A DNA stretch of 62,494 bases, the filler included, from Stramenopiles sp. TOSAG23-6 (lineage: Eukaryota), in assembly GCA_900128565.1 (NCBI GenBank). It is 14 parts of 14 records of this genome, joined end to end, with 100 filler letters (N's around TTAATTAATTAA, not from the genome) between each part and the next. Parts side by side here need not be neighbours in the genome. Positions count along the whole stretch, not along the records: positions 53,718 to 58,056 come from LT637189.1; 13 more parts are not named here. One strand, 5' to 3'. Under the pieces are notes generated by a model that saw nothing but the letters and a program-made list of their open reading frames with translations, made no database searches and was not told the origin of the DNA. Position numbers and translations under genes: made by a program. The number at the start of each line of letters is the position of its first letter. Position 1 is the first letter of the stretch. Below, piece after piece: positions 20,077 through 60,344 of this stretch.

Positions 20077-20170
20077 GTATGTTTTATTTTTTTTTTCAAT
20101 TTCGAATTTATTTTTCGTACGAAATTTTGTACCTAACGAATTTTTTTTTAAATATTTTTTCACAATACAT
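20077..20170 (+). other. Intron, GT-AT (possible chimeric junction)
   Basis: GTATGTTT...TTTCGTACGAAATTTTGTACCTAAC...CACAATACAT. Confidence 0.7.
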
Positions 20171-26082: not shown

Positions 26083-26790
26083 ATGTTTACACGTTTAGTT
26101 GAAAACCCACGAAATCGACGTCGAAGTGGTGACGGTAGTGAAAAACAGGATACTAATTACGAGGGTAAAACAAGAACATTACCCATTGAACAAACTCAAG
26201 CGGAGAAAGAACAGGACGATCTTGCACGCGCTGTAAAAGCTCGTGAAGCTGAATGGGATCGTCAGAGAAATCGAACGTTTATTGAAAGCAATGTTGCGAC
26301 TCCGCCACTGCCGAAACCGTTAGCAAGTCTACCTTCACCATCAGTAAGTAGAGCTGCAGCTGCGTCTTCGTCACGTCACAGGGTTCATACTTTGCCAACA
26401 ACACCTGGGCATAAGAGTGTAGCAGTAGGCCATCCGGTACGTGACAGAGAGACTGTATTGGCTGAAGGTGATGAAGCAGCATCTGTGTTATCTCAAATTC
26501 GTGCTACTCTTGCAAAAAGTGAATCTAAAACTTGCTCAAAAGAGGAGAGTATAATAAAAGAAAACTCTAAGAGGTACGTTTTCATCATGAATTTCAAAAA
26601 ACAAATTGTATCAAAATTTGTACCAAACATTTTTTTAACCAATTTCGAATTAACATATTTTTTTTACAATACATAAAGTCTCAGGTAGATTCTGATATTA
26701 ATGCTGTTGACGTTCTAAAGACAGTTAGAGGAACATTGAATCAAGCTACGTCTATCCAGTCAAATGCAAATGCAAAAGCTGCTGAGGCAT
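26083..26790 (+). CDS. Hypothetical protein, 3' partial
   Basis: Exons 26083-26573 and 26675-26790 joined by GT-AT intron 26574-26674; internal repeat AASVLSQIRATL / AVDVLKTVRGTL spans the join. Confidence 0.65.
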
Positions 26791-27291
26791 GTACGTTTCA
26801 TTTTTTTTTCAATTTCGAATTTTTTTTTCGTACGAAATTTTGTACCTAACGAAANNNNNNNNNNNNNNNNNNNNNNNNNNNNNNNNNNNNNNNNNNNNTT
26901 AATTAATTAANNNNNNNNNNNNNNNNNNNNNNNNNNNNNNNNNNNNNNNNNNNNCACAGCAATGAAATTTCTTCATTGGTTCATTACTTCCATATTTATA
27001 TCAATGTTGTTTTATTTTATAACCGCTCTCCACGAAATCTGTAAAAAAATCGAAATGTCGAAAATATTGTACTTGAAATAATCAAATCGAAATCAAATCG
27101 ATCAAAATTTTCTTTTCTTTTCACATTTACTATACACTTGACTAAAGTTTGACTTAGTTTAAAATTAAAAATCCAATTGATTGTTAAATATTGATTGTGA
27201 CTGAATGATATCATCATGCTTCCTATGATATATTTCCCAACTGATTGATATATAGAAGCATTTCTCTTTGATTAAGATTCCTTTAAAAACA

Positions 27292-29443
27292 ATGGAGGAT
27301 GGACATCGGAAAGGATTTGGAGGAAAAACGATTGGAAATATAGGTTCCTTTATTTATTTAGTGAACCAGATTTTCGGGCCTGGTGTCCTTGCTCTTCCTT
27401 ACGTTGTTATACAGAGTGGATTCATCCCATCGTTATTGATGAATGTATTCATGTGTATGGCTTCGGCGTTATCTTCAACAATGCTAATGGGTGCAATACG
27501 TGCAATTCCTCAAAATAGACATCTTCAACAAAGATTAGGATTTTTTAGTGCAATTCGTTTTTACTATGGTACAAAAGTCGCAACAGTGTTTCAATTTTTT
27601 CTTCATTTAACGTTACAATCGTTAAATATTGCTTCAATCATCGATGTGGCTTGTGCATTTGATAAGTTACTACTAAAACTAGTTGGTAAAACACCAGCAT
27701 TAGAAGTTTCACCTCACTTTCATTTTGGATTATTTGATCTTAATTGGGTGAGTTCAGTTTATGGCTCAGATCAATCTACAATAACATTTGCATTAACTTT
27801 AGGGTATTGTATTGTTGGTTTGTTATGTATACCAATGGGAATGTTTAATATTGATGATAACATCATTGTACAAATTGTCTCTTTTATATTTTTAGTCATT
27901 CTCATTGGTATTTTTGTACTTCAATGTATTATTGATGGATTTCGTGCAGATCATTTTGACAATAATGATGAAGATTTCGTATTTCCTTCTTTTTTTGGTT
28001 CAGAGTATCGAGGATTAATGGCAGTCTATATATTTTCATACAGTTATACAATGCTAATTCCTCCATGTAACTATATATTTTTTACATTTATTTGAATTTT
28101 TTTTTTTCAAAATGAATTTTTGTTTCGTACGAAATTTTGTACCTAACAAAATATTTGAAATTTTTGAAATATTTTTTTTATATTTCATGGGCAAATGAAG
28201 CGAAACGAAACGTTAATATTGGAAAACAAATTTGGTTATCTGCTTTAACATCATGCATTGGTTATTTGATTGTTGGTATGTAATTCAATAATATATTTTG
28301 AATTTGAATTTTTTTTGAATTTTTTTTTTGAATTTGAATTTTTTTTCATACCTAACAAAATTTTAACTTTGATTTGTTAGACTTTTACATGGACTCTACT
28401 CGCTTGTGCATATCCAAATATTACAACAGATAATGTTCTTCTCAGTATATTAAACAGTAAATATTCTAATTGTGTGTTTATATTTTAAATATCATTTTTT
28501 TTTTAAATACAAAANTNTATACCNAANAAAAAAAAANTCATTTTTTTTTNATATATTTTTCAAAAATATATTAATTACAAGAATTGCTGCATATGCATTT
28601 GCTGCCACAATTATATTACCAGGTATCCCTGTGTTTTGTATAACAACTCGGTATGATTTACAAATGAGTGGAATATGTTCGTATGTACGTTTTTTCGTAC
28701 TATTTTTTTATTTTTTTGAAATTTTATTTTTCGTACGAAATTTCATACCTAACAAAAAAAAATATTTTTTTTATGAAATATTTTTCAACATGTAGAGACA
28801 AAGTATTTTTTTTGGAAACATTGCTCCATGGTTAATTGCTTGGTGTTTATCATCTGCTACTGCTTTTTCATCCATGTTGGTATGGACAAGTTTGGTATGT
28901 GGATCTGTAGTGAATTACATTGTACCTTTATTTTTATACAGAACATCAATTTTAAAAGCCAAAGAAAACCCTAACCCTAGTACTATGAACCCTAACCCTA
29001 GTATAAATGATGATAGAATAAGTCCTAACCCTAGTTCAAATGATGATGAAGAAGAAGTAAAAGAACAACAACAAATTCGAAATTCATTAGGTATGAAATG
29101 TAGAATAAATTCAATTTCAAATTTATCTGTACTTGAGTCACCACTAATTGAAAACTTTTATAATCAATACAATGATGAAAGAAAAATGAATGAAATAAAT
29201 ACTATAGACATGAACCCTAACCCTAATCAACAATCCTCGTATAATGGCTTTTATAATGAAGAAGAAAATTTATTGAATATAGACATGAACCCTAACCCTA
29301 ATCAACAAAACCCTAACCTTAATCAACAATGGACTGTTTACCCTAAATGTGTTCAAAAATACGAAATGTATATAACAAATTGTATATTAGTGTTGATTCT
29401 GATTTCAGTCATTACTTGTATCACTATACAAATTTTTAAATAA
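27292..29443 (+). CDS. Amino-acid transporter (Aa_trans/AAAP family), five exons
   Basis: LVNQIFGPGVLALPYVVIQSGF and multiple TM segments; introns 28067-28188 (AT), 28276-28390 (AT), 28472-28571 (AT) and 28685-28795 (AG) give one open frame. Confidence 0.85.
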
Positions 29444-29808
29444 AGTTGAAATGAGTTGAAATGTCCAAAACAATTTCGAGAGTAAATGACAATCTATATT
29501 GAAGTTGAATACTATATATGATATATATGTATATATATGTATATAATAATAATACAATTAATTTGAATCATCTTTTTATTTTATTTCTTCACAAAACCAA
29601 ATAAATCACTTTTTTGTTGTTCAATTCAAAACACAAAAATACAAAATAATGACAAGCCCATTTGACTTGGACTAAATATTTTCATTGTACCATTTCTCAC
29701 CATGACTCCAAAATATTCTTGTGCATATCGATCAATGTAGACCAATCTACTTCACTTGTATATTCTTTTCGAAACAAACCAAATGTATTCTATACCTGAT
29801 TTTGTTAG

Positions 29809-30370
29809 TTAAACACTTTTACGATCTGTCATGACACGAAGTATAGAACCAACACCGACTTTTGTGTTTAATAATGAATGCCACCTAAATAGTGTTGAAG
29901 CGCGTTTTGGATCTTCTAAACCTTTGTAAATATATTTCATAAGTACATCATAGTATTCTGGTGAAAGTTTATTGATACATGACTTAATTTTATCGTCTCT
30001 ACATCCGTATAAAACTTTATAAACACATTCTGCGTTAGCTTCCTATAATGTAAATGAAAATGTCAAAGTGTCAAAAATGAAGGAATAAGTTCAAAAGTAT
30101 GTACAACTATACGATTCAAGTATATTATAAAAACACAGTATCAAAGGGTATAAACGGGATGTTGAATTCTGATGAGTGAAAATACTTGTAAAAGATGATA
30201 TGATGTTGTACTTTTGAAGAACTTACCTTGACTTCTTTGTTTTTACTACCCAATGGTGGGTTCTCCAAAGATTTAGAAAGAGCTTGCAAGAAATTATTTT
30301 GACTTAGTAAATCTTCCACTTCTGATTTTTTTATGCGAATGCTATCTAGAAAAGCAGCATCATTTGACAT
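29809..30370 (-). CDS. ARPC5: Arp2/3 complex subunit 5 (p16-Arc)
   Basis: ALSKSLENPPLGSKNKEVK|EAN...DVLMKYIYKGL...LFRWHSLL...GVGSILRVMTDRKSV; canonical intron 30043-30226 (GTAAGT...TAG). Confidence 0.92.
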
Positions 30371-30725
30371 TATTATACTCCTAACACTTCTTCTTATTGT
30401 TTACGATGCCTTGGCTATACTTAACACAATTTGTCACTTTGACTATTATTACTATCAGATTTTATTACGCAAGCAGAATGATGATGATTGAAATGAAGAA
30501 AATGGTTTTGGGAAAATTTTATGGGTCAGAAAAGGTACCAGGTAACGGTATCAAATTTCGAATTAATTCATCGATATTATTTTATTGATTTTTTTATCTA
30601 ATTTCTCAAATTTAATCAAATATGTGTTATTATTTTTGTTTGTATATGAAATGTTTCACCCTTTTATAAACAACAGGGAAACATTTTAGTACAATAATAA
30701 ACAGATAATAATAAGAAAAATAAAT

Positions 30726-31323
30726 TTAAAAATATTTTTCAAGCATTGCTTGTGCATACTTATTACTGGCATTAGCAGCTTTGGTATACCACTTTTTAGC
30801 TTCTTTTTTGTCTACAGCAACACCATGACCAAATTGATAGCAATAACCAAGATTATTTTGTCCACTGCTATGACCTGCATTAGCGGATTTAGTATACCAC
30901 TTGAAAGCTTCTTTTTTGTCTTCAGCAACACCAATACCATATTCATAACAATAACCAAGATTACTTTGTCCACCACTATTACCTGCATTAGCGGATTTAG
31001 TATACCACTTGAAAGCTTCTTTTTTGTCTTGAGCAACACCACGACCATGTTGATAGCAATAACCAATATAATTTTGTGAAATACTATCATCACTATTATC
31101 CATAAACATCTTAAATGCTTTTTCCTCATCCTTTTTATAACCATTCCAACCACTAAGTGTACAAAATGCAATAGCTGTTGGAAAACCAGCAATAGCCACA
31201 GATTCAATCATTAGTCGTCCATTCTCTTTATCAATAGTCTGAAAGTCATTACCATAAAACTTCGCATAACCAAGTTCAAATAAATTCTGTGCACCTTTAT
31301 TTTCTATCTTTTGACGTTTTACT
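30726..31323 (-). CDS. Sel1-like repeat protein, 5' partial
   Basis: Three 36-aa repeats QxNLGYCYxxGxGVAxDKKEAFKWYTKSANAG. Confidence 0.9.
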
Positions 31324-31760
31324 NNNNNNNNNNNNNNNNNNNNNNNNNNNNNNNNNNNNNNNNNNNNTTAATTAATTAANNNNNNNNNNNNNNNNNNNNN
31401 NNNNNNNNNNNNNNNNNNNNNNNCACAGCAATGAAATTTCTTCATTGGTTCATTACTTCCATATTTATATCAATGTTGTTTTATTTTATAACCGCTCTCC
31501 ACGAAATCTGTAAAAAAATCGAAATGTCGAAAATATTGTACTTGAAATAATCAAATCGAAATCAAATCGATCAAAATTTTCTTTTCTTTTCACATTTACT
31601 ATACACTTGACTAAAGTTTGACTTAGTTTAAAATTAAAAATCCAATTGATTGTTAAATATTGATTGTGACTGAATGATATCATCATGCTTCCTATGATAT
31701 ATTTCCCAACTGATTGATATATAGAAGCATTTCTCTTTGATTAAGATTCCTTTAAAAACA

Positions 31761-33912
31761 ATGGAGGATGGACATCGGAAAGGATTTGGAGGAAAAACGA
31801 TTGGAAATATAGGTTCCTTTATTTATTTAGTGAACCAGATTTTCGGGCCTGGTGTCCTTGCTCTTCCTTACGTTGTTATACAGAGTGGATTCATCCCATC
31901 GTTATTGATGAATGTATTCATGTGTATGGCTTCGGCGTTATCTTCAACAATGCTAATGGGTGCAATACGTGCAATTCCTCAAAATAGACATCTTCAACAA
32001 AGATTAGGATTTTTTAGTGCAATTCGTTTTTACTATGGTACAAAAGTCGCAACAGTGTTTCAATTTTTTCTTCATTTAACGTTACAATCGTTAAATATTG
32101 CTTCAATCATCGATGTGGCTTGTGCATTTGATAAGTTACTACTAAAACTAGTTGGTAAAACACCAGCATTAGAAGTTTCACCTCACTTTCATTTTGGATT
32201 ATTTGATCTTAATTGGGTGAGTTCAGTTTATGGCTCAGATCAATCTACAATAACATTTGCATTAACTTTAGGGTATTGTATTGTTGGTTTGTTATGTATA
32301 CCAATGGGAATGTTTAATATTGATGATAACATCATTGTACAAATTGTCTCTTTTATATTTTTAGTCATTCTCATTGGTATTTTTGTACTTCAATGTATTA
32401 TTGATGGATTTCGTGCAGATCATTTTGACAATAATGATGAAGATTTCGTATTTCCTTCTTTTTTTGGTTCAGAGTATCGAGGATTAATGGCAGTCTATAT
32501 ATTTTCATACAGTTATACAATGCTAATTCCTCCATGTAACTATATATTTTTTACATTTATTTGAATTTTTTTTTTTCAAAATGAATTTTTGTTTCGTACG
32601 AAATTTTGTACCTAACAAAATATTTGAAATTTTTGAAATATTTTTTTTATATTTCATGGGCAAATGAAGCGAAACGAAACGTTAATATTGGAAAACAAAT
32701 TTGGTTATCTGCTTTAACATCATGCATTGGTTATTTGATTGTTGGTATGTAATTCAATAATATATTTTGAATTTGAATTTTTTTTGAATTTTTTTTTTGA
32801 ATTTGAATTTTTTTTCATACCTAACAAAATTTTAACTTTGATTTGTTAGACTTTTACATGGACTCTACTCGCTTGTGCATATCCAAATATTACAACAGAT
32901 AATGTTCTTCTCAGTATATTAAACAGTAAATATTCTAATTGTGTGTTTATATTTTAAATATCATTTTTTTTTTAAATACAAAANTNTATACCNAANAAAA
33001 AAAAANTCATTTTTTTTTNATATATTTTTCAAAAATATATTAATTACAAGAATTGCTGCATATGCATTTGCTGCCACAATTATATTACCAGGTATCCCTG
33101 TGTTTTGTATAACAACTCGGTATGATTTACAAATGAGTGGAATATGTTCGTATGTACGTTTTTTCGTACTATTTTTTTATTTTTTTGAAATTTTATTTTT
33201 CGTACGAAATTTCATACCTAACAAAAAAAAATATTTTTTTTATGAAATATTTTTCAACATGTAGAGACAAAGTATTTTTTTTGGAAACATTGCTCCATGG
33301 TTAATTGCTTGGTGTTTATCATCTGCTACTGCTTTTTCATCCATGTTGGTATGGACAAGTTTGGTATGTGGATCTGTAGTGAATTACATTGTACCTTTAT
33401 TTTTATACAGAACATCAATTTTAAAAGCCAAAGAAAACCCTAACCCTAGTACTATGAACCCTAACCCTAGTATAAATGATGATAGAATAAGTCCTAACCC
33501 TAGTTCAAATGATGATGAAGAAGAAGTAAAAGAACAACAACAAATTCGAAATTCATTAGGTATGAAATGTAGAATAAATTCAATTTCAAATTTATCTGTA
33601 CTTGAGTCACCACTAATTGAAAACTTTTATAATCAATACAATGATGAAAGAAAAATGAATGAAATAAATACTATAGACATGAACCCTAACCCTAATCAAC
33701 AATCCTCGTATAATGGCTTTTATAATGAAGAAGAAAATTTATTGAATATAGACATGAACCCTAACCCTAATCAACAAAACCCTAACCTTAATCAACAATG
33801 GACTGTTTACCCTAAATGTGTTCAAAAATACGAAATGTATATAACAAATTGTATATTAGTGTTGATTCTGATTTCAGTCATTACTTGTATCACTATACAA
33901 ATTTTTAAATAA
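31761..33912 (+). CDS. Amino-acid transporter (duplicate copy)
   Basis: Identical to 27292-29443. Confidence 0.8.
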
Positions 33913-34277
33913 AGTTGAAATGAGTTGAAATGTCCAAAACAATTTCGAGAGTAAATGACAATCTATATTGAAGTTGAATACTATATATGATATATATGTA
34001 TATATATGTATATAATAATAATACAATTAATTTGAATCATCTTTTTATTTTATTTCTTCACAAAACCAAATAAATCACTTTTTTGTTGTTCAATTCAAAA
34101 CACAAAAATACAAAATAATGACAAGCCCATTTGACTTGGACTAAATATTTTCATTGTACCATTTCTCACCATGACTCCAAAATATTCTTGTGCATATCGA
34201 TCAATGTAGACCAATCTACTTCACTTGTATATTCTTTTCGAAACAAACCAAATGTATTCTATACCTGATTTTGTTAG

Positions 34278-34839
34278 TTAAACACTTTTACGATCTGTCA
34301 TGACACGAAGTATAGAACCAACACCGACTTTTGTGTTTAATAATGAATGCCACCTAAATAGTGTTGAAGCGCGTTTTGGATCTTCTAAACCTTTGTAAAT
34401 ATATTTCATAAGTACATCATAGTATTCTGGTGAAAGTTTATTGATACATGACTTAATTTTATCGTCTCTACATCCGTATAAAACTTTATAAACACATTCT
34501 GCGTTAGCTTCCTATAATGTAAATGAAAATGTCAAAGTGTCAAAAATGAAGGAATAAGTTCAAAAGTATGTACAACTATACGATTCAAGTATATTATAAA
34601 AACACAGTATCAAAGGGTATAAACGGGATGTTGAATTCTGATGAGTGAAAATACTTGTAAAAGATGATATGATGTTGTACTTTTGAAGAACTTACCTTGA
34701 CTTCTTTGTTTTTACTACCCAATGGTGGGTTCTCCAAAGATTTAGAAAGAGCTTGCAAGAAATTATTTTGACTTAGTAAATCTTCCACTTCTGATTTTTT
34801 TATGCGAATGCTATCTAGAAAAGCAGCATCATTTGACAT
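34278..34839 (-). CDS. ARPC5: Arp2/3 complex subunit 5 (duplicate copy)
   Basis: Identical to 29809-30370. Confidence 0.88.
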
Positions 34840-35194
34840 TATTATACTCCTAACACTTCTTCTTATTGTTTACGATGCCTTGGCTATACTTAACACAATT
34901 TGTCACTTTGACTATTATTACTATCAGATTTTATTACGCAAGCAGAATGATGATGATTGAAATGAAGAAAATGGTTTTGGGAAAATTTTATGGGTCAGAA
35001 AAGGTACCAGGTAACGGTATCAAATTTCGAATTAATTCATCGATATTATTTTATTGATTTTTTTATCTAATTTCTCAAATTTAATCAAATATGTGTTATT
35101 ATTTTTGTTTGTATATGAAATGTTTCACCCTTTTATAAACAACAGGGAAACATTTTAGTACAATAATAAACAGATAATAATAAGAAAAATAAAT

Positions 35195-35792
35195 TTAAAA
35201 ATATTTTTCAAGCATTGCTTGTGCATACTTATTACTGGCATTAGCAGCTTTGGTATACCACTTTTTAGCTTCTTTTTTGTCTACAGCAACACCATGACCA
35301 AATTGATAGCAATAACCAAGATTATTTTGTCCACTGCTATGACCTGCATTAGCGGATTTAGTATACCACTTGAAAGCTTCTTTTTTGTCTTCAGCAACAC
35401 CAATACCATATTCATAACAATAACCAAGATTACTTTGTCCACCACTATTACCTGCATTAGCGGATTTAGTATACCACTTGAAAGCTTCTTTTTTGTCTTG
35501 AGCAACACCACGACCATGTTGATAGCAATAACCAATATAATTTTGTGAAATACTATCATCACTATTATCCATAAACATCTTAAATGCTTTTTCCTCATCC
35601 TTTTTATAACCATTCCAACCACTAAGTGTACAAAATGCAATAGCTGTTGGAAAACCAGCAATAGCCACAGATTCAATCATTAGTCGTCCATTCTCTTTAT
35701 CAATAGTCTGAAAGTCATTACCATAAAACTTCGCATAACCAAGTTCAAATAAATTCTGTGCACCTTTATTTTCTATCTTTTGACGTTTTACT
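35195..35792 (-). CDS. Sel1-like repeat protein (duplicate copy)
   Basis: Identical to 30726-31323. Confidence 0.85.
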
Positions 35793-42908: not shown

Positions 42909-43271
42909 TATTTGAAACCTTGAACGTCACATCAACCAAGGATAATATTCTGGTTGTTTATATTTTTATCCATTTAATGTGTTATGTGTGAAGGATTCCG
43001 GCTCTTGATTGTATTTACTTTTACAGAGCAACGATGCGAAGATGAAAACCCACAGATGTCAAAACTATTATAGTGAAGAAGCTCACTTTTTTTTTTTCAC
43101 CACATGTTTTTTTTTTTTTTGACCATTTTGTCATTCGATTATTTCTCTGTTCATTTCTGTTGTGACCCGTTATTATGATTATGTCACACGCGCACTACCA
43201 CGGTGGTCTTTTCTATCTATTAAATACTCTATGAATAAATTTATTTCACTCCTCTATAGCTGCAACTAAAG

Positions 43272-44724
43272 ATGACATCCCACATGTCAAAGGCTGTAAG
43301 ATCAGCTACTGACTCAGAAATATTCGATCTTGGTGGTTATAACGAAGATACTATACACTTGCTAGTTGATCAGTGTTTCAAAGAGCCTTTTCCAATCTCT
43401 ACAATGATCAAAATAAGTTTCATTGTAGGCGCTGGAAAAGCTACACGCGGTAGATACAATAGTTCATTACCAAAGTATATGCGTGCAGCTCTCCAGAAAG
43501 TCGGATTTTCTGAAGATCAAGGAGCATGCTGTATGGATACCAGTGCAGGTTTGTTCAAATATCAACATGATACTGGAAAGAACCAAATTTTTATCCATGT
43601 ATTCCCACTTCTGAAAGTTGCGGATGGGTCGTTTCCACCAGTACCTCCTCAAGCTGAAGAAATAAAGGATCCTCTAACAATGTGTTGTGAATGTAGTTTT
43701 TCTACTTTTAAGAAAATAGTGGAGAAACAAACTCCTTCGGTTACAACTAAACGTCGTCTACATGCATGTTTTATTTATTTTTTTGTTTTCGAAAAAAAAA
43801 AATCGATTTTTTTTTCGTACGAAATTTTGTACCTAACAATTTTTTTTTTTTGGTAAAAAAATTTTGAAATATTTTTCCAAAATACATGCTGCTTTAAAAG
43901 ACGCCAAGAAAGAATTTACTTCTATTGAAAAGAAGTTAATGAATGGTGAGACACTTTCAATCAAAGAATCAGAGAAATATTCTAATTTTGAAGACATAGA
44001 AGATAAAATAGAGTATGTACGTTTTCAAAATTGGATTTTTTTTGAATTTTTTTTTTTTGAAAATTTTGTACCTAACAATTTTTTTTTTTTTTGGTAAAAA
44101 AAAAATTTTGAAATATTTTTCCAAAATAAATGTTCATTCTCTGCAAATCGCTCAAGTAAAGCGTGGTGAAATTACTGCGGAAGAAAAAAATATATTGAGG
44201 TCCAATCTTTTTTCAAAGATAAAAACTTTAGAGATGGAAATAAAAAAATGTGAAGAAAATGCATCAGAAAATGTAAGCAAACCAAATCTAGCTGCAAAAT
44301 ATAACAAACATGTAGAAAAGTTACAGAAAGACAGAACGTTTTATTTATTTTTTTGTTTTTTTTGTTTTCGAAAAAAAAAAAATCGAATTTATTTTTCATA
44401 CGAAATTTTGTACCTAACGAATTTTTTTTTATAGAAAATTTTGAAATATTTTTCCAAAATAGGCAACAAACTGAATATTCGTATGAATTCTCTCAAAGAT
44501 AAACCAACAAAAGACGTTTTGACAATTTTCCCTTTAAAAAATAAAGAAGAATTTGAGTCAATTTGGCTTCAGGCTGATCGAATAAAATCATGTACGTTTT
44601 ATTTTTTTTTTTTTTTCGAAAAAAAAAAAAAAATCGAATTTTTTTTTCATACGAAATTTTGTACCTAAAAAATTTTTTTTTTTTTTTTTTTTGAAATATT
44701 TTTCCAAAATACATATCTATTTTC
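43272..44724 (+). CDS. Uncharacterised protein with four motif-class introns, 3' partial
   Basis: Introns 43764-43887 (GC-AT), 44017-44131 (GT-AT), 44334-44462 (GA-AG) and 44592-44714 (GT-AT); the first three joins give a continuous frame. Confidence 0.75.
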
Positions 44725-49394: not shown

Positions 49395-52300
49395 CGATCT
49401 CCATTGTGTTATGCTTGTCAAAGAGGAAATGAAGATATCGTACGTTTTTTGTTATCACAGGGAGCTAATATTCATCATTGTGATGATACATTACAAATGC
49501 CTCTAGGGTATTCAACATCTTTGAATATTATATCTTATTTACTGTCTAACTTGTTTGAAAAGAACAAATTCGAAAAAAACAAATTGGAAAAAAACAAGTT
49601 TGAAACCAATGAAAACAACAAGTTTGAAACCAATGAAACAAACGGTATATCAATTCGTCCAATTCAAAATAATCCAACACAAAATCATATTGATAATCCT
49701 ATTTTGTTAAATAATACTGAAAAACAACAATTAAAGAAATATTTGAATCATTTAAATCAAGATAATAAATCAGCTTTAACATTTGCTTGTCAAAATGGAA
49801 ATCTAAAAGTAATTAAATATTTATTAGAAAAAGGTCTTGATGCTACAATTCTTGATACAAACAAAAAAACATTGTTGATGCATGTTCCACAATGTCAAAA
49901 TCAAATTCAAATTTTTCAATGCTTATTTGAAGCAGGTATGTTTTTTTTTTTTTTTTACAGAAAAATCGAATTTATATTTTTTTTTTTATAAAAAATTTGT
50001 ACCTAACGGGTTTTTTTTTGAAATATTTTTCCAAAACACAGGCACAAATGTAAATGCGAGAGATAGCACAGGTAAAACTATAATGCATTATGTAGCTGCA
50101 CAGACCAATGGAGCAAACCTGATGAAGTTAATAACCTCTTCATTTGAAACAATGATGTCCGTTTTCAATTTCGAATTTCAAATTTCAAATTTATTTTTTT
50201 TTATTTTTTTTTTTTGGTTTTTCAAATTTATTTTTTTTTATTTTTTTTTTTTTGGTTTTTGGTTTTTGGTTTTCATACGAAATTTCGTACCTAACATTTT
50301 TTTTTTATAGAAAATTTTAAAATATTCTTTCATAATATATTGATGCTATTGATGAAACCAAGCGAACACCTTTAAGTTATGTATCTAATTCAGATAGTGC
50401 ATCTCATTTGCTTCAAATAGGATCAAATGTAGATATTGAAGATATTCAAAAAAGAACGGTGTTAAGTTATATATGTGAAGCAGCAAGAGACCCTAACCCT
50501 AACCATAACCAAAATTATAAGAGAATATTACAATTATTATTTTCTTGTGGTGCTGATTTCTCAGGAGGTCATGCTAAACGCAATGCAATAACATTTGCAT
50601 CAAAACCTAATATATTAAAACAATTTGTGAAATCTGGTGCAAATGTTTTTTCCACTGATTCGCATGGGCGAAATATTTTGCATTATTTTGCTTGGAAATG
50701 TTCTCAAAACCCTAATTCTTGTTGTAATGAATTGACGACAAGTTGGAATTCTGAGGATAAAAAATGGGTTTTGAACCCTAACCCTAATCCTAGTTCAACT
50801 ATAAAAAGTCATACATTGATACAATCTACATCTTCAGACTTTTCTAATGATATTGAAATTGCTAAAGTACTCCAAGTGAACATGGAAAAAGCAAAGGCAA
50901 TTCATATAACTGCAGAATCCGTCCGAGCAAATGCTGCGGTTCATTGTGTGCTCCAACAGACGTATAGAATAGCAAAAGCAGAAGAAAAACGATTTCAAAA
51001 ATATGCTGATATTAAAGTTACACTTGAATTGGCTGCAAGGCAACGATGGAACAAAGCACAATATGGAATACCTGCAGAAACTCTTGTCACAATAAATAAT
51101 GAATTATTAAAGTCTAAAATAAATGAAACTGCTGCAAGAGTACAGTATAATTTAATGGCTGCAGGAAAACATGATGCAACAGCATTGACAAAGTTATCCA
51201 AACATGTATAATTTCATCATGAATTTATTAATTTATTTTTTTATACGAAATTTCGTACCTAACTATTTTTTTTTTTGTAATTTTTTTTTTTTTTTTTTTT
51301 TACCAAATTTTGGACCCAAACTTTTTTTTTTTTTTTTTTAAACATGTCGCATCTATGGTCGATACATACCAACAGACTGTGCGTAGATGTACGTTTTCAA
51401 TTTTGATTTTTTTTTTAAACTTTTGAAATTTTTTTTTGTATGAAATTTTGTACCTAACCAAAAAAAAACCCAAAAAAAAAACTAAAAAAAAAATTTTTTT
51501 TTTTTCAAAATATTGTTCAAAAATGTATGGTTTGTTGCTCATGGCATTTTATCCGATGACAAGGTGAAACAATTAGGTAGACAACTTTCTGAACAGAAAG
51601 ATGTTTTACAGTCTCAAGAAAGATCTTTACAATCATATTTGGATAAATTGCAAATTGCAATGGAAAAGAAAGCAACAATACAAAAAATACAAAAACAATC
51701 TAAATCAAAATATTCAAAATATTCAAAATATTCAAATTCAGATAAAACAGACAGTTTTTTGAAAGACGAAAAAAACATTGAAAACAATGAAAACAATGAA
51801 AAAGAAATCAAACAACTTGAAGATAAAAAGAGAGAAGTATCTAATGAAGTCGAGGTATGTTTTTGTTTCAATCTTTTTTTTTTTTCAATCTTTTTTCGAT
51901 TTCAAATTTGCTTCATTTTTACATAGTAAATTTTGTACCTAACAATTTAAAAAAAAAAAAAAAAATGAAAAAAATATTGTTTTGTAATATAGGTAGCACG
52001 CCAAATAGTACACAAATTACAAGAAACATATACAAAAGCATTAAATGCAAAAAACCTTTCAAATGCTTATATAAAGATAAGAGATAATAAAGTTGCCCAA
52101 GAAAAAATATATAAACAATTACAAAATGTGTTGGGTGTAATACCTACAGAAGAAAAGAAACAATTGAAAACAAAATGGATGTATGTTTTAATTTTTTTTT
52201 TTGAGACTTAAAAAAAAATCGATTTTTTTTTTATAAAAATTTTGTACCTAACAATTTTTTTTTGAAAATATTTTCCAAAAATATATGAATATTCAATTTG

Positions 52301-53546
52301 TACTTGCTGAAGCGATGCATTCCGTTGTGAAATCAAAAGCCAAAACTAAACAAGCGTATATAAAAATGAAAAATGCATGGAAACAATGTCAAGATGCACA
52401 TATTGAATATGGAATGGCTTGTTTGTTTTATATATTTTTTTATATATTTTTATATATTTTTATATTTTTTATATATTTTTTTATATTTTTTTTTTTTTTT
52501 CATAGTAAATTTCATACCTAACAAAAAAAAAATAAAATATATTTTTCACAAAACATGTTTGACAAAAGAATCTCGTGATAATCTACTTAAATATCGTACC
52601 ATGAAAGAATTTGAATCAGATTCAAATCCAGGAAAATATTTTGGCATTTTAGGAACATTACAAACAAGTTTTGGGCTTGGTATTGATGTGAATAGTGTAG
52701 ATAGAAAAGGTCGTTCAATATTGCATTACATTATTGGCGTGTACAACCCTAACCCTAACACTACTATACACACAAAAAACAAAAAAAACAAAAAAAACAA
52801 AAAAAACAAAAAAAACAAAATACAAAATTCAAATTCAAACATACATATAAATATTGTAGATTCAGGTATATTACACGTTATACAAAAGCAACAGAGATTG
52901 GCTTTACAATTAGCCTTATCCATGGGAGCAAATATTGACATTTGTGATTGTGAAGGACGTTCGACGTTAAGCTATGCATGTATCTTTTAATTTTTTTTTT
53001 AAATTTTTTGTCTACATTTTTTCATAGTAAATTTTATACCTAACAATTTTTTTTTTTACTAACCAAAAAAAAAAAAATTTTGAAATATTTTTCCAAAATA
53101 CATGTGAATATGAAAATCATCAAGCCATTGAACTTCTTTTGTTTGCTGGAGCAAATGTACATTGTACAGATAATTCAAATAGAGATCCAATTACGTAGGT
53201 TTTTTTTTTTTTTTTGTAAAACTTGTTAGGTACAAAATTTCGTACGAAACCAAAAAAAAAAAATATATTTTTTTTTTTAATTTTTTTTCTTACATTTTTT
53301 TTTATAGTAAATTTCATACCTAACAATTTTTTTTTATAGTAAATTTTTAAATATTTTTTCACAATATATATATGCTTGTAGTTTAAAAAGTCTTTTACTT
53401 TTATTAGACGCCGATGCATCGCCAAATAGTAAAATCAATGCAGAAAATGTAACTATATTAATGGAAGCATCTAAGAATGGTTCAGTTTTAATTGCCAAAG
53501 CTCTGTTAGCAAAGGGTGGTTCAATTTTGGTACGAGATGTTGATAT
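49395..53546 (+). CDS. Large ankyrin-repeat/coiled-coil protein, partial, ten exons
   Basis: Introns 49936-50041 (AG), 50157-50340 (AT), 51206-51345 (AT), 51389-51528 (AT), 51855-51992 (AG), 52181-52286 (AT), 52421-52556 (AT), 52980-53103 (AT) and 53195-53369 (AT) give a continuous frame with intact ankyrin repeats. Confidence 0.85.
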
Positions 53547-53564
53547 GTTTGTTTTTTTCATCCA

Positions 53565-53617
<53 letters not shown>

Positions 53618-53989
53618 NNNNNNNNNNNNNNNNNNNNNNNNNNNNNNNNNNNNNNNNNNNNTTAATTAATTAANNNNNNNNNNNNNNNNNNNNNNNNNNN
53701 NNNNNNNNNNNNNNNNNATATCTGATATAATTGTATTTGTACCATTTTTTTATACTTGAAAAATTTGTACAACTTTTTTTTTTTTTTTCTTTTTTTAAAT
53801 GTGTACTTTTTTTTTTATACTTGAAATGTTCTATGAAAAAAAATCTCAAAAAATACAATTGTATATATATACATTATATATATACATTATATATATACAT
53901 TATCTCCAGAGATAATTACTACAATACAATAATATATTGTATTTTTTTTTTATATTTTTTATATTTTTCATATAATTTTACTTTTGACA

Positions 53990-54350
53990 TATTATTCACA
54001 TTTTAAAAAAGTTATTATTGGGCATGTACGTTTTTTTTTTCATACGAAATTTTGTACCTAACAAAAAAAATGACCAATTTTGAAATTTTGAAATTTTGAA
54101 ATTTTGATTTTTTTTTTTTTGGTTTCATACGAAATTTTGTACCTAAGAAAAAAAAATTAACCAATTTTGAATTTAATTTTTTTTCACAATATATCGAGGT
54201 GCAGTNAATGCATGCGCATTTTTACCTGAAGGGGATAGTTGTATTTCTGTTGGAAATGATAAATCATTACGCATTTGGAGCACATTACCAAATGATATTG
54301 ATGAGAGTTATGCAACTGATAGTGAATATGAATATTATACTGATGATTAA
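53990..54350 (+). CDS. Last WD40 repeat of a WD40 protein, 5' partial
   Basis: IIGH|RGAVNACAFLPEGDSCISVGNDKSLRIWS after removing GT-AT intron 54026-54194. Confidence 0.75.
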
Positions 54351-54388
54351 ATGGATAAAAAAAATATTATGGTTATATTATATATATA

Positions 54389-54439
<51 letters not shown>

Positions 54440-54522
54440 AAATTTTTTCAAAAATTTCAAAAAAAATTTTTTTTTTTGAAAAAATTAAAAAAATAGGAAA
54501 AAAAGGTTTCATGAAAAAATAC

Positions 54523-56332
54523 ATCTTTTGTGTTTGATAGAAGCATTGCCGTATTATGAAGACGTTGAACAGCTTCAAGTAACCAAGCATTCATATCACT
54601 AGGTACATAGGATGCAGCAAAATTTTGTAATGCAGCAATAGCATCAGTATAATCTCTTGATATTTCTTTTGTTTTTTCAAATAAATTTTCATTATTTTTT
54701 TTTTCAAATTTTTTTTCAAAATGTTTTGTTTTTTTTGTTTTTTTTATTTTTTCATCATCTTGTTCAGTATATTGTTCATCATCTTGTTCATCATCTTGTT
54801 CAGTATATTGTTCATCTATATTTTCATCATCTTGCTGATTATGTTGTACATCACGCACAGTGTCTATGTTTAATGGATGGAATGAACCAACACTTTCTCT
54901 TTCAAGTTGTTTTTCTTTGAAATCAGTCATGANTATATATATTTTGGAAAAATATTTCAAAAAAAAAAAATCTAAAATTTTTTTTGTTAGGTACAAAATG
55001 TCGTATGAAAACCAAAAAAAAAAAAAAAAAAATTTTAAATTTAAATTTAAAAAAAAAAAAAAAAAAAACATACATTTTCAGCAATATTGCTCTGTTTTGA
55101 TATTTTTTCTACTTCAAATGTTTTACTACAAAATCCTGAAAATCCTGAAATAAACTGAGTTGATACTCCAAGTTCTTCCATTGTAAATGATTGTAACCAT
55201 ATCATTTGTTTTTGCCATCGTTTGTCCTCTTTATCAATAATTGATTGATTATAACATTGACATAATTTTTTTATAGGTGCTAAATTATAAATTGCATTTG
55301 AGGCGAGTAATAGTAAACAATTATTTTCTTCTTTTTCCGCCTTTTCACAATATCGTTTTGTTTTTTCAATTTCAGTTGCGAGACACTGAGCTTCAATTTC
55401 TGTAGTTGATGTATTTTGGAAAAATATTTCAAAAAAAATTTTTTACCAAAAAAAAAAAAAATTTGTTAGGTACAAAATTTTCAAAAAAAAAAAATGTAGA
55501 CTAAAAAAACATTGAAAAAAAACAAAAGATACATGTTGGCGAAGTGGATAAAATGGTTGTCAACCGTCTTGAAATACGTGAAGATGTTGTTTCGGATATT
55601 TTAGGTGTTTCGGATGTTTTAGGTGTTTCGGAGGTTTTAGGTGTTTCGGAGGTTTTAAAGGTTTTTAAGGTTTCATTTTCATCTTTTATATTTTTTTGTT
55701 TCATTACTTTTATTTGAGCTTTCGCAACAATACGAGATTTAACTTTAGCTAATCGAAGTTTTTTTGATAGTCTTTTTGTATCATATTGACCAATTTCAAA
55801 ATGTGCAGCTACAGCTTTAGAAAAATATTCAACAAAAGCATGAACTAAACCAGGAGGCAAATAATAATTATTATTATTATTATTATTATTATCATTATTA
55901 TTATTTGTAGTAGTAGTAGTAGTAGTATTTGTAGTAGTAGTATTATTATTATTAGTAGTAGTAGTATTATTATTATTAGTAGTAGTATTATTTGTAGTAG
56001 TATTATTATTATTATTATTAGTAGTAGTAGTAGTATTATTAGTACTAGTAGTAGTATCATAAATATTATTATTATTATTAGTAGTAGTAGTATCATTTAT
56101 AGTATTTTTTTGTTTTTTTCGTTCCTTCAAAACTTCTTCCGTACGTGTTCTAACTCTATTTAACCATCGATACAAAAGTCTTCCTGGTCTGTTTCTCACA
56201 TCTAATGCAATTGAATTAAACATATTTTGTAAAATAAAAGGAATTTTCAAACCCTTTGGTGACTCAAAATTCCACACAGCTCCTTTATCATCATTATCAT
56301 CATTATTATTATTTGTTGTATCATCATTACTA

Positions 56333-56363
<31 letters not shown>

Positions 56364-57969
56364 TATTATCATTATTATTATCATCACTAGTATCATCATC
56401 ATTATTATCATCATTATTATCATCATCAGTATTATCATCATCATTATAACAATAATCACGAAAAACACTTTGTAATCCAATATAATCAAATTGTCCAGAT
56501 TTCGTGACATCATGAATAATACCTAATAAATCGTTTTTTTGTACTTCATAAGATCGTAATCGAGATCGTGATTCAAGTATTGTGAAAAAATATTTCAACA
56601 AAAATTTTAGAAAAAATTGTTAGGTACGAAATTTTTTTACGAAATTTTTTTACGAAAAAAAAAAAAAATTAAATTAGAAATTCATATAAAATTAAATTAG
56701 AAATTCATATAAAACGTACAACCATTGCGATACGTTTTGTTGAACGGTCAAACTCTTTCTGTATTTCGTGTACTTTTTGAACATGTGTAAATATATAATC
56801 ATCTCGGGCTGCTAGCATGTACTGTGAAAAACAATATTTCATTTTTTGATTTTATTTTGTTTTTGTTAGGTACAAAATTTCGTATGAAAAAAAATTTCAC
56901 AAAAAAAAAAAAAATGTTGAAATTTTTGATTTTGTTTTTTTGTTTTCTATGAAAATTTCGTATGAAAAATCAAAAAAAAATATATCGAAAACATACATTT
57001 CCGGAGGAAGAAAAAAATTACCTGCTAATACAGGAATTGCAATTTTTTTCTTATCAATTAAAAAATTAACACAATCTTGTAACTCAAGGCACCATGAATG
57101 TGATGATTGATAATTTGGTGCAGCTAGAAAAAAAGTTTTAGGCCCAGTACGGGATGGGATACCTAATAAAAATATATTTTGTAAAGAATATTTTTTTTTT
57201 CATATTTTTTTGTTAGGTACAAAATTTACTATGAAAAAAAAACTGTAAAAAAAAAAATGTAATTTTTTTTTTTTTTTTTTTTTTACATTTGTTAGGTACA
57301 AAATTTACTATGAAAAAAAAATTTATGAAAAAAAAAAAAAAAAAAAAAATTCATGAAATGACACAGACGCATTTTCAACACTTCCAAATCCCATAGAAAT
57401 GCATTCTTCGGACGTTTTAGGATCCGATACCCATGTTTCACTAGTAAAATCAATAAATCCTCTAGGAGTCAATTTTTCTTCAATCGCACGTTTTTTATAT
57501 ACAGTGATTNGNTCAGTTNTTTTTTTTNGANTTTTTTTTTGAATTTTTTTTCAAAATTTTTTTTGAATTTTTTTTCAAAATTTTTTTTGAATTGTTTTTC
57601 AAATTATTTTTTGAATTATACAGTGAATCTTCATGTGTAATTGTCGTATCCATTGTAGTATTCCATGGTAACTCTGTCTCTTGATAATAATATAAACGAA
57701 ATGCTAGAGGTCGTACAGAATCGGGATAAATTGTAAAGAAATATATTTTTTTTAGTTTTTTAGTTTTTTAGTTTTTTAGTTTTATAGTTAGGTACAAAAT
57801 TTACTATGAAAAAAAAAAAAAAAAATTTGAAATAACAAACATGATATTGTTTCCATTGTAAAGTAGTATTATTTAATCGGACAATTATCGGTGGATATTG
57901 GAGAGGTGCAAATCGGAAGTTACGCCATTTCCATCTTCGTAGAATATCTGAACGTTTTAATAAATTTCC
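54523..57969 (-). CDS. PH domain plus probable VPS9 (Rab5 GEF) domain protein, partial, Asn/Thr/Asp-rich inserts
   Basis: GNLLKRSDILRRWKWRNF...LYYY...PRGFIDF...ENAF...TFFLAA...W (PH); YTDAIAALQNFAASYVPSDM (VPS9-like). Introns 57726-57840, 57174-57368, 56817-56996, 55409-55532 and 54937-55073 (AT) and 56575-56719 (TT); 57500-57620 unresolved because of Ns. Confidence 0.7.
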
Positions 57970-58156
57970 ATGTATTTTTCAAAAATATGTTTCAAAAAAA
58001 AAAATCGTTAGGTACAAAATTTCGTACGAAAAAAAAAAAAAAAAAATAAAAAAAGGNNNNNNNNNNNNNNNNNNNNNNNNNNNNNNNNNNNNNNNNNNNN
58101 TTAATTAATTAANNNNNNNNNNNNNNNNNNNNNNNNNNNNNNNNNNNNNNNNNNNN

Positions 58157-58425
58157 ATTTTTTGTATTTTTTGTATTTTTTGTATTTTTTGTATTTTTTG
58201 TATTTTTTGTAAAATTTGAAAACTGTTTTTTTTTAATATTTTTACGTATATGCCAATTTTTAAATTCATCTAACGCTGATATTATAGCAACCTTGGCCAC
58301 TTCAGGTGGAAACAAACTAAGATCAATTTGTGATTGAGCAGGTTTGTTTTTATCAATGGACCAAGTTTTAAAGTAACCGTCTCTGTGACTTTGGTTATAT
58401 AACTGTAATGCCTTGGCTTGATGAC
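58157..58425 (-). CDS. Exon resembling a PPR/Smr-domain region
   Basis: ALQLYNQSHRDGYF...IDLSLFPPEVAKVAIISAL. Confidence 0.4.
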
Positions 58426-58684
58426 CTTTTGTATTGTAAAAAAATATTTTTTTTTTTTTTTTTTTTTTTTTGGGAAAAATTTTTTTTTTAAAAAAAAATT
58501 AAAAAAAAAAAAAAAAAAATTAATTTTTGTTTAGGTAAAAAATTTCTTATGAAAAAAAAAAATGAAAAAAAAAAAAAAATTTTCAAAAAAAAAAAAATAA
58601 TAATAATTTTTGTTTTCTATGAAAATTTCGTATGAAAAAAAAAAAATGAAAAAAAAAAAAAATTTTAAATAAAGTATGAAAACC

Positions 58685-59983
58685 AACTTTAACAGTTTGT
58701 TGGACAACGACTCGAGGATTTGGTTGATGTATAACTGAGGATTCCTGTGGTGCAGGGGTACCTCCTAATACAGCGCATATGTCGTGTGATGAAAAACCTT
58801 CCCCTTTCATTCTCATTTTAATCACAATATCAGGTGCACCTGTTTTTTTCATATCGAACCATTGTTGCAATCTTGGATCATGAGTTTTCGTTGCTTCGGC
58901 AAAAACAGATTTTCCTGATGTGAACGGTAAATTGAGTTTTTGTTTTTTTTGTTTAATTTGTTTTTTTTGTTTTATACCATGAACTGTTGGTTGCTCAGCT
59001 GGTCTTTGTTTTCGGATCTGTGGTATCGGTGGTTTTTGTTTACTTTTTACATTACGTGTCGGGCGTATTGGGGCCGATGGTGTTGGCACATTATGCGATA
59101 TTTCGTGTTCATCATCAGAAAAGACTTTTGAAAATGGAATACCATCTTTTTTCATAGCTTTCTTGATTGCTCGAGTTGGGATACCAAGTCCTTTCATATG
59201 TTTATATTTCTTGATCTTGTCTTCAGTAGATAAAGTTGACATTCTACGTTTTGGCTTGGACGATCGAGTGGGCGGTGTTGGTGGAGTTCTATTAGCAACA
59301 TCATTTTGTAGCCTTTCAATCAAAAGTTTTTTAACTTCAGGTTTATTAAAGTCTTTTTTACGAAAACCTTGCTTTTTAAACTCTTGTTTCCATCTTTTTG
59401 GAATTTGAGCCCAGTCGATGTCTCCTTTAGCGTCAATTCCGACATGATATTCATGTTTGACGTTGGCAACACCAACAACTGAAAAATCCACTTCCTTCTT
59501 TTTCCCTCTAAAGTTGTTCCAGCCAGTAGAGAGAGAAGACAAGAAACCTTTACTTTTAGTTGATTTTGCAGCTTTAAAATTGGATAGAGGTGCACCATAC
59601 TTCTTAGTAACATATGTGTTAAATTTTTTAGCCATCTTACGCGCCTCGTCTGGATCAGCATAAGCTATNCCTGCCATATGTGACTCTAGTTCAAATGCAT
59701 GAAACCGATCATTTAGTTCAATTAACTGAATTCCTCGATATACTTCAGTTTCAAAAGCGATACTACATGTTTGAATATTATAAATACGGAGAACTACGGT
59801 TTGAAGTTTTCTATTCATGACTAAAGTTAAAATCCCGGTTGCACCAGTCTCAACCCAATCATAAGCAACTTGTGATTTTGGATCAGCCAACACAAGCTTT
59901 GCTGCAGCATACGCTAATACAGTGCATGAACTAGGCAACTTTTGTTTCACTGATTTTAATTCATCGCTAGTTATCAACGGCAT
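58685..59983 (-). CDS. WASP-like protein (WH1, CRIB-like, proline-rich), 3' partial
   Basis: WVETGATGILTLV...AFETEVY...FHAFE...AYADPDEARK (WH1); VVGVANVKHEYHVG (CRIB-like); two KYxxMxxxGxP-type repeats. Confidence 0.8.
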
Positions 59984-60344
59984 AATTGTATACTTTTTTT
60001 TTTCTTTTTCACTTTTTTTTTTAGCTCTTTTTCCCCCATCATCAACATTTGAAGTTGAAGTTCGTTGAAGTTGAACGATTTGAATGATTTGAATTATTTT
60101 TGGAGAGGAATGAAGCAAATTTAAGGCAGAACAAGTCTGGAAGTCAGCGAATTTCCGCGAATTTCAAATTTATTTTGTTGCGCGCATCAAAAAAATGGAG
60201 CGTCAACTTCTTCTTCTTCTCCCTCATCATCAACCCTGTGTTTGTAACAAAATTACACTGTGCGTACGTGCCCGCTGGTAGTGCTTATATTTACAGAATA
60301 CACAATTTAGGACATTTAACGTATATAATATTAATAGATAGTTC

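Follow-up and report, generated by a model that had tools for sequence, protein, structure and literature searches.

The AG that closes introns is among the most conserved signals of eukaryotic genes, and its large-scale loss is, to our knowledge, known in very few lineages. In a 62,494-nt stretch assembled from the genome of Stramenopiles sp. TOSAG23-6 (the window; all positions count along it), a minus-strand gene carries an intron, 56996..56817, that appears to end in AT, with a CAG lying 5 nt upstream. This raises the question of whether the AG is indeed passed over and, if so, what sets the 3' end of the intron. The parts of the locus are as follows (a slash marks a cut).

56997..57171, minus strand: upstream exon, ...GIPSRTGPK...IPVLAGNFFLPPE; its final AT belongs to an ATG codon, and its 5' border at 57172 is uncertain
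57020..57021, minus strand: rival canonical donor CAG/GTAATT, which paired with TAG/ at 56812 gives ...IPVLAAARDDY
56817..56996, minus strand: family intron as placed by the initial annotation, 180 nt, GT...AT, member of a repeat family
56988..56996, minus strand: 5' splice site GTATGTTTT (family consensus GTAYGTTTT), directly preceded by exon AT
56992, minus strand: second GT, a rival donor at +4 inside the 5' splice-site region
56865..56873, minus strand: branch-like box GTACCTAAC, within the conserved block TTTTCATACGAAATTTTGTACCTAAC, 48 nt upstream of the 3' end
56817..56840, minus strand: 3' box GAAATATTGTTTTTCACAGTACAT (consensus GAAATATTTTTCCAAAATACAT), the last base of which is the intron end
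56822..56824, minus strand: CAG within the 3' box; other copies have CACAATACAT, and the G looks like an A-to-G change here
56720..56816, minus strand: downstream exon (M)LAARDDYIFTHVQKVHEIQKEFDRSTKRIAMV; the next family intron is 56719..56575, GT...TT, with the exon end also TT

Reading frame at the cited junctions

Intron 56996..56817 runs from GTATGTTTT to TTTTTCACAGTACAT on the minus strand. The host exon ends in ...CCTCCGGAAAT, the intron starts with GTATGTTTTCG and the next exon with GCTAGCAGCCCGAGATGATTAT. The initial annotation had proposed that this intron ends in AT, since the upstream CAG would lead to a stop. With its donor (AAAT/GTATGT, 56996) this is correct: joining to CAG 56822 gives ...PPEITC*, while a cut after CAT leaves an open ...PPEM/LAARDDYIFTHVQK (PPEMLAARDDY). 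Three further introns had been cited as similar cases.

50157..50340, plus strand: second cited intron, GT...AT, exon end AT; use of TAG 50310 leads to a stop (...ETMIKF*)
28276..28390, plus strand: third cited intron, GT...AT, exon end TG; TAG 28380 is out of phase with donor 28276
26574..26674, plus strand: fourth cited intron, GT...AT, exon end AG; box variant GTACCAAAC

With the donors of that annotation all three behave as described, TAG 50310 giving the stop listed, TAG 28380 a frameshift and CAG 26684 a stop (...SKR*, with donor 26574). Once other donors are considered, one or more canonical GT-AG pairs that are in frame and free of stops can be drawn at every one of the four sites, often involving a GT 4 nt downstream of the family donor. 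At 56817 there are two such pairs, 56992 with CAG 56822 (product PPEMYYMLAARDDY) and 57021 with TAG 56812. The intron ending at 50340 has the +4 donor with AAG 50362, that ending at 28390 has donor 28272 with TAG 28380, and that ending at 26674 has the +4 donor with CAG 26684 or AAG 26678. The four sites alone are thus no proof that AGs are bypassed. A +4 GT is, at the same time, inherent in the GTAYGT start of the introns, so that about one third of nearby AGs fall in phase with it by chance.

The ankyrin consensus includes a conserved D in its loop, and the rival pair at 50340 deletes this D; the product of the AT junction, ...SSFETM/IDAIDETKRTPL, is closer to the consensus than the rival product. 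Protein searches with the exons of the 56817 host gene retrieved neither a homologue nor transcript-derived proteins matching these exons. In a large exon of the same gene, (AAT)n, (ACT)n and (GAT)n encode long Asn, Thr and Asp runs (55850-56450, minus strand).

A family of repeated introns

The four introns all belong to a single repeat family, whose borders carry a 2-nt repeat, a point that the initial annotation omitted. In the window, which is eukaryotic and has about 30% G+C, GTACCTAAC occurs exactly 40 times in 62 kb, 22 times on the plus and 18 times on the minus strand. Its contexts are near-identical, TTTTTCRTACGAAATTTT-GTACCTAAC-RA-T(n)-GAAATATTTTTCCAAAATACAT, and unrelated exon sequence follows directly; upstream, copies begin with ...AT/GTAYGTTTTATTTTT. 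An alignment of 21 copies together with 10-nt flanks reveals conservation from ATGTAYG to a sharp stop after ...ATACAT. It contains about 60 conserved columns as well as subfamilies, exemplified by extra blocks common to four introns of the gene at 43260-44724. The signals shared by the family are 5' GTAYGTTTT, a branch-like box (GTA)CCTAAC, a T tract and the 3' box. Many near-identical introns at unrelated sites, a feature of introners, are therefore present here (40 exact boxes, 21 aligned copies).

The terminal inverted repeat ATGTAY...RTACAT is short (5-9 nt). A 12-nt perfect palindrome, TTTCGTACGAAA, is located ahead of the branch box in many copies, e.g. at 56865-56890 on the minus strand. 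Truncated or reversed copies also occur outside an intron role (61078-, 36429- and 53233-, the last reversed inside another intron). In an intron of a plus-strand ankyrin gene, the reversed central box TTGTTAGGTACAAAATTTCGTACGAAA adjoins a forward box (53220-53250, plus strand), which is evidence that insertion can occur in both orientations.

Curated introns and their ends

Curation yielded 27 introns whose two ends both fall in clean sequence. Left out were the region 31.7-35.8 kb, an exact duplicate within the assembly, copies that run into an assembly gap at one end (13572-, 22339+, 22497+, 26842+, 35904+, 40372+, 44661+, 49342+, 58015-, 62483-) and copies whose ends or host gene could not be defined (820-, 4227-, 25058-, 36429-, 53233-, 54054/54139+, 57220/57299-, 58538-, 60907+, 61078-, ~53197-53375). 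Some of the omitted cases count against the AT reading or are neutral to it: 57352..57172 (GA...AT) is out of frame, ~53197..53375 would require odd TA or AC...AT ends, and 58584..58429 may end in AA or in an AG 3 nt later. In the first of these (minus strand), GT is missing from where the 5' end should begin (CAT/GAATTTTT); a low-quality stretch interspersed with Ns (57510-57531) is adjacent, so that a sequence error in this intron is possible. Within the curated set, the reading frame was taken into account in placing the 3' ends 18203, 44462 and 51992, which lie 2 nt from where the automatic prediction had them.

The termini of the 27 introns are GT-AT in 20, GT-AG in three, GT-TT in two, and GC-AT and GA-AG in one each. 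The 3' dinucleotide is accordingly AT in 21, AG in four and TT in two, which departs from the 3' AG of U2-type introns. All three kinds of end share one position in the 3' box of the alignment; A stands at -2 in 25/27 introns, T or G at -1. The other signals are those of U2-type introns: the 5' end is GT in 25/27 (one GC, one GA), with G at +5 and consensus GTAYGTTTT, and a [GTA]TACC[TA]AA box is found in 26/27, 33-70 nt from the 3' end (median 44.5), then a T run. All 27 copies lie in sense orientation. Both variant donors keep the frame, namely GAACGTTTT...ATAG (GA-AG, 44334-44462, plus strand) and GCATGTTTT...ACAT (GC-AT, 43764-43887, plus strand). A supposed skip of ACAT in favour of an AG 4 nt later in intron 28685..28795 was rejected, its ...ATGTAG end aligning with ...ATGTAT of other copies.

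In 20/27 introns, the dinucleotide that ends the preceding exon recurs at the end of the intron (AT and AT in 16, AG and AG in two, TT and TT in two). Shuffled borders gave 13.9 matches on average, with 42/100000 reaching 20; AT is nonetheless dominant on both sides of the borders, and a target or splicing preference could also yield 20/27 matches. Exons end in AT before 17/27 introns, compared with a 10.6% background, and the next exon begins with G in 17/27. The 2-nt border repeat fits target duplication by a mobile element, and origin of the family from a transposon with a 2-nt duplication seems likely.

Reading frames across the introns

All 27 junctions are stop-free over 60 nt on either side, and in 26 exactly one phase is open. 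Longer spliced chains behave in the same way. The chain 18005-22280, with three GT-AT junctions, contains no stop in 3987 nt (101 and 160 in the other frames), and 43260-44724, with four junctions, contains none in 974 nt. The chain 49395-51211, with two junctions, is open until the read-through stop. Finally, the chain 57171-54457 runs through four junctions (56996 down to 54937, including 56817) in frame to a stop codon. This openness of the host gene fits continued use of its AT site, although the pair formed by the +4 donor and the CAG at -5 would keep the frame too.

As a frame-blind control, ends were defined by motif only. Stop-free junctions were then obtained in 16/23 cases at shift 0, in 16-17 at shifts of 3 or 6 nt to either side, and in 7-10 out of phase. 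Among the seven failures, three have N in the tested flanks, two are 2-nt mis-extrapolations of a shortened box and two are unexplained (54139, 57220).

Protein similarity bears on several borders. Ankyrin repeats are spaced at 33 residues, and this spacing is kept by the GT-AT splice 52979/53104. There the exon ends in ...EGRSTLSYA and the Pfam Ank profile resumes at its position 10 on the junction codon, in a weak match (E 0.02; 15.7 bits, cut-off 21.1); in-frame canonical rivals at this junction lose at least 7 residues. In the exon past acceptor 49394, the Ank profile is entered at position 3 (E 7e-9). A 1088-aa relative (48% identity over the best stretch) aligns to ...FEFD, and the window base reached, 20076, is the last one before the motif donor.

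AGs between the branch box and the 3' end

An AG is present between the box and the 3' end in 9/26 introns, 5-37 nt from the 3' end and 5-45 nt past the presumed branch A. By hand-derived positions, 5 or 6 of the nine lie within about 14-16 nt of this A, and AGs so close to it may be skipped by ordinary scanning as well. Only those at 28380 and 56822, perhaps also 50310, are well placed for use. AG is similarly scarce on both sides of the box (11 over the preceding 1614 nt, 9 over the 1143 nt that follow), in both cases below mononucleotide expectation; a special depletion after the box is not seen in the 26 introns.

Some in-frame GT-AG or GC-AG pair exists for 21/23 non-AG introns when donors within 30 nt and acceptors within 60 nt on either side are admitted, yet most of these pairs use the +4 GT or delete open codons. 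The first AGs downstream of the 23 non-AG ends fall at offsets 0, 1 and 2 (mod 3) in 8, 10 and 5 cases (hand count). No phase is preferred, as chance would have it if these AGs were irrelevant.

The initial annotation had stated that AGs are bypassed, in conflict with first-AG scanning, and had suggested that the 3' box positions the acceptor. As regards the former, non-AG ends occur across the family far beyond chance; its own four examples, all with in-frame GT-AG rivals, do not settle the matter. The latter agrees with the fixed position of the end in the 3' box, as opposed to a variable 33-70 nt from the branch-like box, and with in-frame junctions, even if 5 or 6 of the nine AGs are possibly skipped by ordinary scanning.

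Composition of the window

The pieces that make up the window are arranged from longest to shortest, about 4.51 to 4.44 kb, and genes on the two sides of a linker are not necessarily neighbours. Each linker has the form N44-TTAATTAATTAA-N44.

4414-58156: 13 linkers, at about 4458, 8966, 13469, 17949, 22429, 26899, 31368, 35837, 40303, 44769, 49217, 53662 and 58101

Pieces 26955-31323 and 31424-35792 have identical length and identical ORFs (amino-acid transporter-like and Sel1-repeat genes), and they most likely represent one contig filed twice in the assembly. Many contigs end inside copies of the intron element (13572, 22339, 22497, 26842, 35904, 40372, 44661, 49342, 58015), as would be expected if the assembler broke at the repeat, and chimeric joins inside repeats are possible.

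The plus-strand gene at 18205-22132 codes for an ankyrin-WW-coiled-coil protein, whose similarity to a kinesin-14-like relative ends with ...KTFEFD at 20076. The motor domain of the relative (350 aa) is absent from the whole window, and the exon after 20076 is unrelated. Either the gene is built differently, or two pieces have been joined chimerically within the repeated intron. When exon 18205-20076 was used in a whole-library protein search, no near-identical protein was retrieved, the best match (48% identity) belonging to a cluster without an informative name. Metagenome scans with an exon 22-mer and an element 20-mer gave 0 matches each, and Rfam and tRNA scans of the window found nothing. 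Two seawater metatranscriptome runs contain 0.08 of the words of 50300-60200, an overlap given no weight here.

Weighing the possible borders

Were the 56817 intron an ordinary GT-AG intron, TAT/GTTTTC (56992) would be joined to CACAG/ (56822), or CAG/GTAATT (57021) to GCTAG/ (56812), and the AT would mark the end of the repeat only. Both pairs are in frame and stop-free, CAG/GTAAT is a textbook donor, a +4 GT is found in every GTAYGT copy, and like rivals exist at the other three cited sites. The family as a whole is difficult to accommodate in this way. Introns 18108 and 52181 have no in-frame canonical pair in the tested windows, and no pair of the family donor with a downstream AG is available for 9/23 non-AG introns (hand count). 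The absence of phase preference in downstream AGs, the motif-defined ends that stay in frame through long chains and the loss of the ankyrin-loop D at 50340 point in the same direction, and we consider ordinary GT-AG splicing at 56817 unlikely. An identical mRNA would result if the borders were drawn 2 nt further to the left, i.e. AT...AC (ATGTAYG...ATAC). Such introns could be U12-like, U2-type AT-AC, or similar to those of Fritillaria, in which the first dinucleotide varies and the 3' end is YAY. Exon AT precedes GT in 17/27 introns, where the product is the same in either register, and the 3' end would then be constant AC or AT; in the 16/21 AT-ending introns with exon AT, the GT-AT and AT-AC registers are equivalent for this reason. 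G at +5 is, however, a hallmark of the major 5' splice site and marks GTAYG as such, and introns 26574, 28276, 28457, 52421 and 13783 lack exon AT, so that they would need AG-AC, TG-AC, CA-AT, TT-AC and CT-AA ends. These five AT-ending introns, together with G at +5, favour the GT register. The TTTGA motif, which is the U12 branch motif in Physarum, does lie 21 nt from the 3' end in the consensus, and the non-canonical U12 classes reported there include GT-AT and AT-AT (Larue 2020). The 5' site nevertheless does not conform to RTATCCTT, with GTATCTTTT in two copies only (52980, 55532), and in the 21-copy alignment no TCCTTAAC-type branch site is found 10-26 nt from the 3' end, where a T tract is present and TTGA stands 21 nt upstream in the consensus. 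Identity with U12 or Physarum introns was thus rejected on motifs (GTAYGTTTT in place of RTATCCTT; T tract present), and we hold the AT...AC register in any of its forms to be quite improbable.

Removal without a spliceosome might take the form of ciliate-like DNA elimination or of euglenozoan-like, structure-guided non-conventional introns; alternatively, the insertions may simply have broken pseudogenes. Short direct repeats at the borders, inverted ends, an AT-rich body and precise interruption of coding sequence are in keeping with these possibilities. Against them stand the sense orientation of 27/27 copies, the GT, G at +5, CTAAC box and T tract that curated copies carry, borders of AT rather than TA, and long frames maintained across many copies. 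RNAalifold predicted 0 conserved pairs on the 21 copies, neither between the ends nor elsewhere, and on this ground paired ends defining the cut, of the euglenozoan or hairpin-introner type, were dropped. We regard this whole group of explanations as very improbable.

Relation to known introns

Introners with element-borne splice signals, border duplications and precise frame restoration were reportedly found by Huff and colleagues in 2016. We compared the family with several described systems, of which Fritillaria 3'-AT introns and Amoebophrya introners are the nearest. More Fritillaria introns end in AT than in any other dinucleotide (44% in F. pellucida, 34% in F. borealis); these introns close with a YAY triplet, frequently have another ahead of the 5' site, and retain a U-rich tract (Soo et al. 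2026). In our set, CAT or TAT (YAY) ends 19/27 introns and YAY precedes the 5' site in 9/27 (hand count). The 5' end in Fritillaria is non-canonical as well, with AG/AC and AG/AT as main classes and GT/AG at only 5% (Soo et al. 2026), whereas here 25/27 introns start with GT, G at +5 is common, and nearly all introns are copies of one element of about 100 nt. Duplicated U2AF subunits are a further trait of the Fritillaria type. Fritillaria are larvacean tunicates, and neither the gene content of the window nor the GC-rich, protist-like relative is suggestive of a tunicate.

Amoebophrya, a marine protist, has introners that are transposon-like repeated introns with border-overlapping direct repeats and non-GT-AG ends (Farhat et al. 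2021), features which the present family shares. Those introners are described with inverted repeats of 8-20 nt forming hairpins, direct repeats of 3-5 nt and no dominant dinucleotide, in genes with about 54-58% GC (Farhat et al. 2021). The introns analysed here differ in their 2-nt repeat, the lack of a predicted hairpin, uniform GT...AT ends, a clear branch box and a GC content of about 30%.

DNA-transposon introners of Micromonas, Aureococcus and others employ the target duplication as splice site and yield near-identical introns with precise frame restoration (Gozashti et al. 2025). The same account has them spliced at canonical GT-AG, and surveys expect only AG and AC 3' ends. Many near-identical introns, element-borne signals, a 2-nt border repeat and in-frame junctions are likewise found here, but the repeated dinucleotide is mostly AT, and this would become the 3' end.

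Of 1,014 U12-type introns with non-canonical ends in Physarum polycephalum, 17% are GT-AT; there, the spacing from a TTTGA branch motif (9-12 nt) determines where the 3' site falls, and 5' sites resemble GTATCTTT (Larue et al. 2020 preprint). Our family departs from this pattern, as reported there, in the 21-nt distance of TTTGA from the 3' end, in a 5' GTAYGTTTT (with GTATCTTTT in only 2/27), in the CTAAC box with T tract, and in non-AG ends that are a majority here as compared with 0.8% of introns there. Hemistasiid diplonemid introns are described as pairing their ends (Thakur 2025). No description of the present intron element was found in the literature searched, and searches for its motif strings gave primer-type matches only.

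Proposed mode of splicing and its meaning

We propose that 56996..56817 is an introner, one member of a transposon-like intron family that is present in many copies and brings its own signals, and that it is spliced out as GT...AT while CAG 56822 most likely stays unused. From the sequence we put the probability of this at roughly 0.68, and non-AG splicing at 56817 is probably both real and unusual. Counting against it are the two canonical GT-AG pairs in frame at 56817, the in-frame canonical pairs near 21/23 non-AG introns, the three curated ends placed with guidance from the frame, the out-of-frame copy 57352..57172, the odd termini required at ~53197..53375, the shortness of the terminal inverted repeat and a fragmentary assembly that breaks within these very repeats and is possibly chimeric there.

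In the proposed mechanism, each copy would bring its own signals: the major-type GTAYGTTTT, a yeast-like (GTA)CCTAAC as putative branch site, a T tract and, last, a 3' box with a YA(T/G) end. The spliceosome would remove intron 56996..56817 from the transcript as GT...AT, cutting at the last base of the 3' box, which is T in most copies and G in a few. The site of the second step would thus be set by the end of the box, not by distance from the branch box. The CAG 5 nt upstream would be a point change within the box of this copy.

A broader and more tentative possibility, to which we give somewhat less than even odds, is that the major spliceosome of an AT-rich eukaryote routinely removes GU...AU introns, the last base being read by its position in the element-borne 3' box, with U or G accepted. 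A G(+1)-U(-1) pair would perhaps replace the usual G-G contact. Through such tolerance, a transposon that creates a 2-nt AT duplication could have populated the genes with introns.

If true, GU...AU splicing would add an independent example to that of Fritillaria, in a cleaner form, as the 5' site stays canonical. Most introns having a textbook 5' site and branch box with an AT end would isolate the question of the 3' site, and a genome of AT-ending introns would be a natural test of site choice in the second step of splicing. It would also show a mobile element that creates introns without supplying an AG. Gene finders demanding GT-AG would mis-annotate almost every gene of the source organism.
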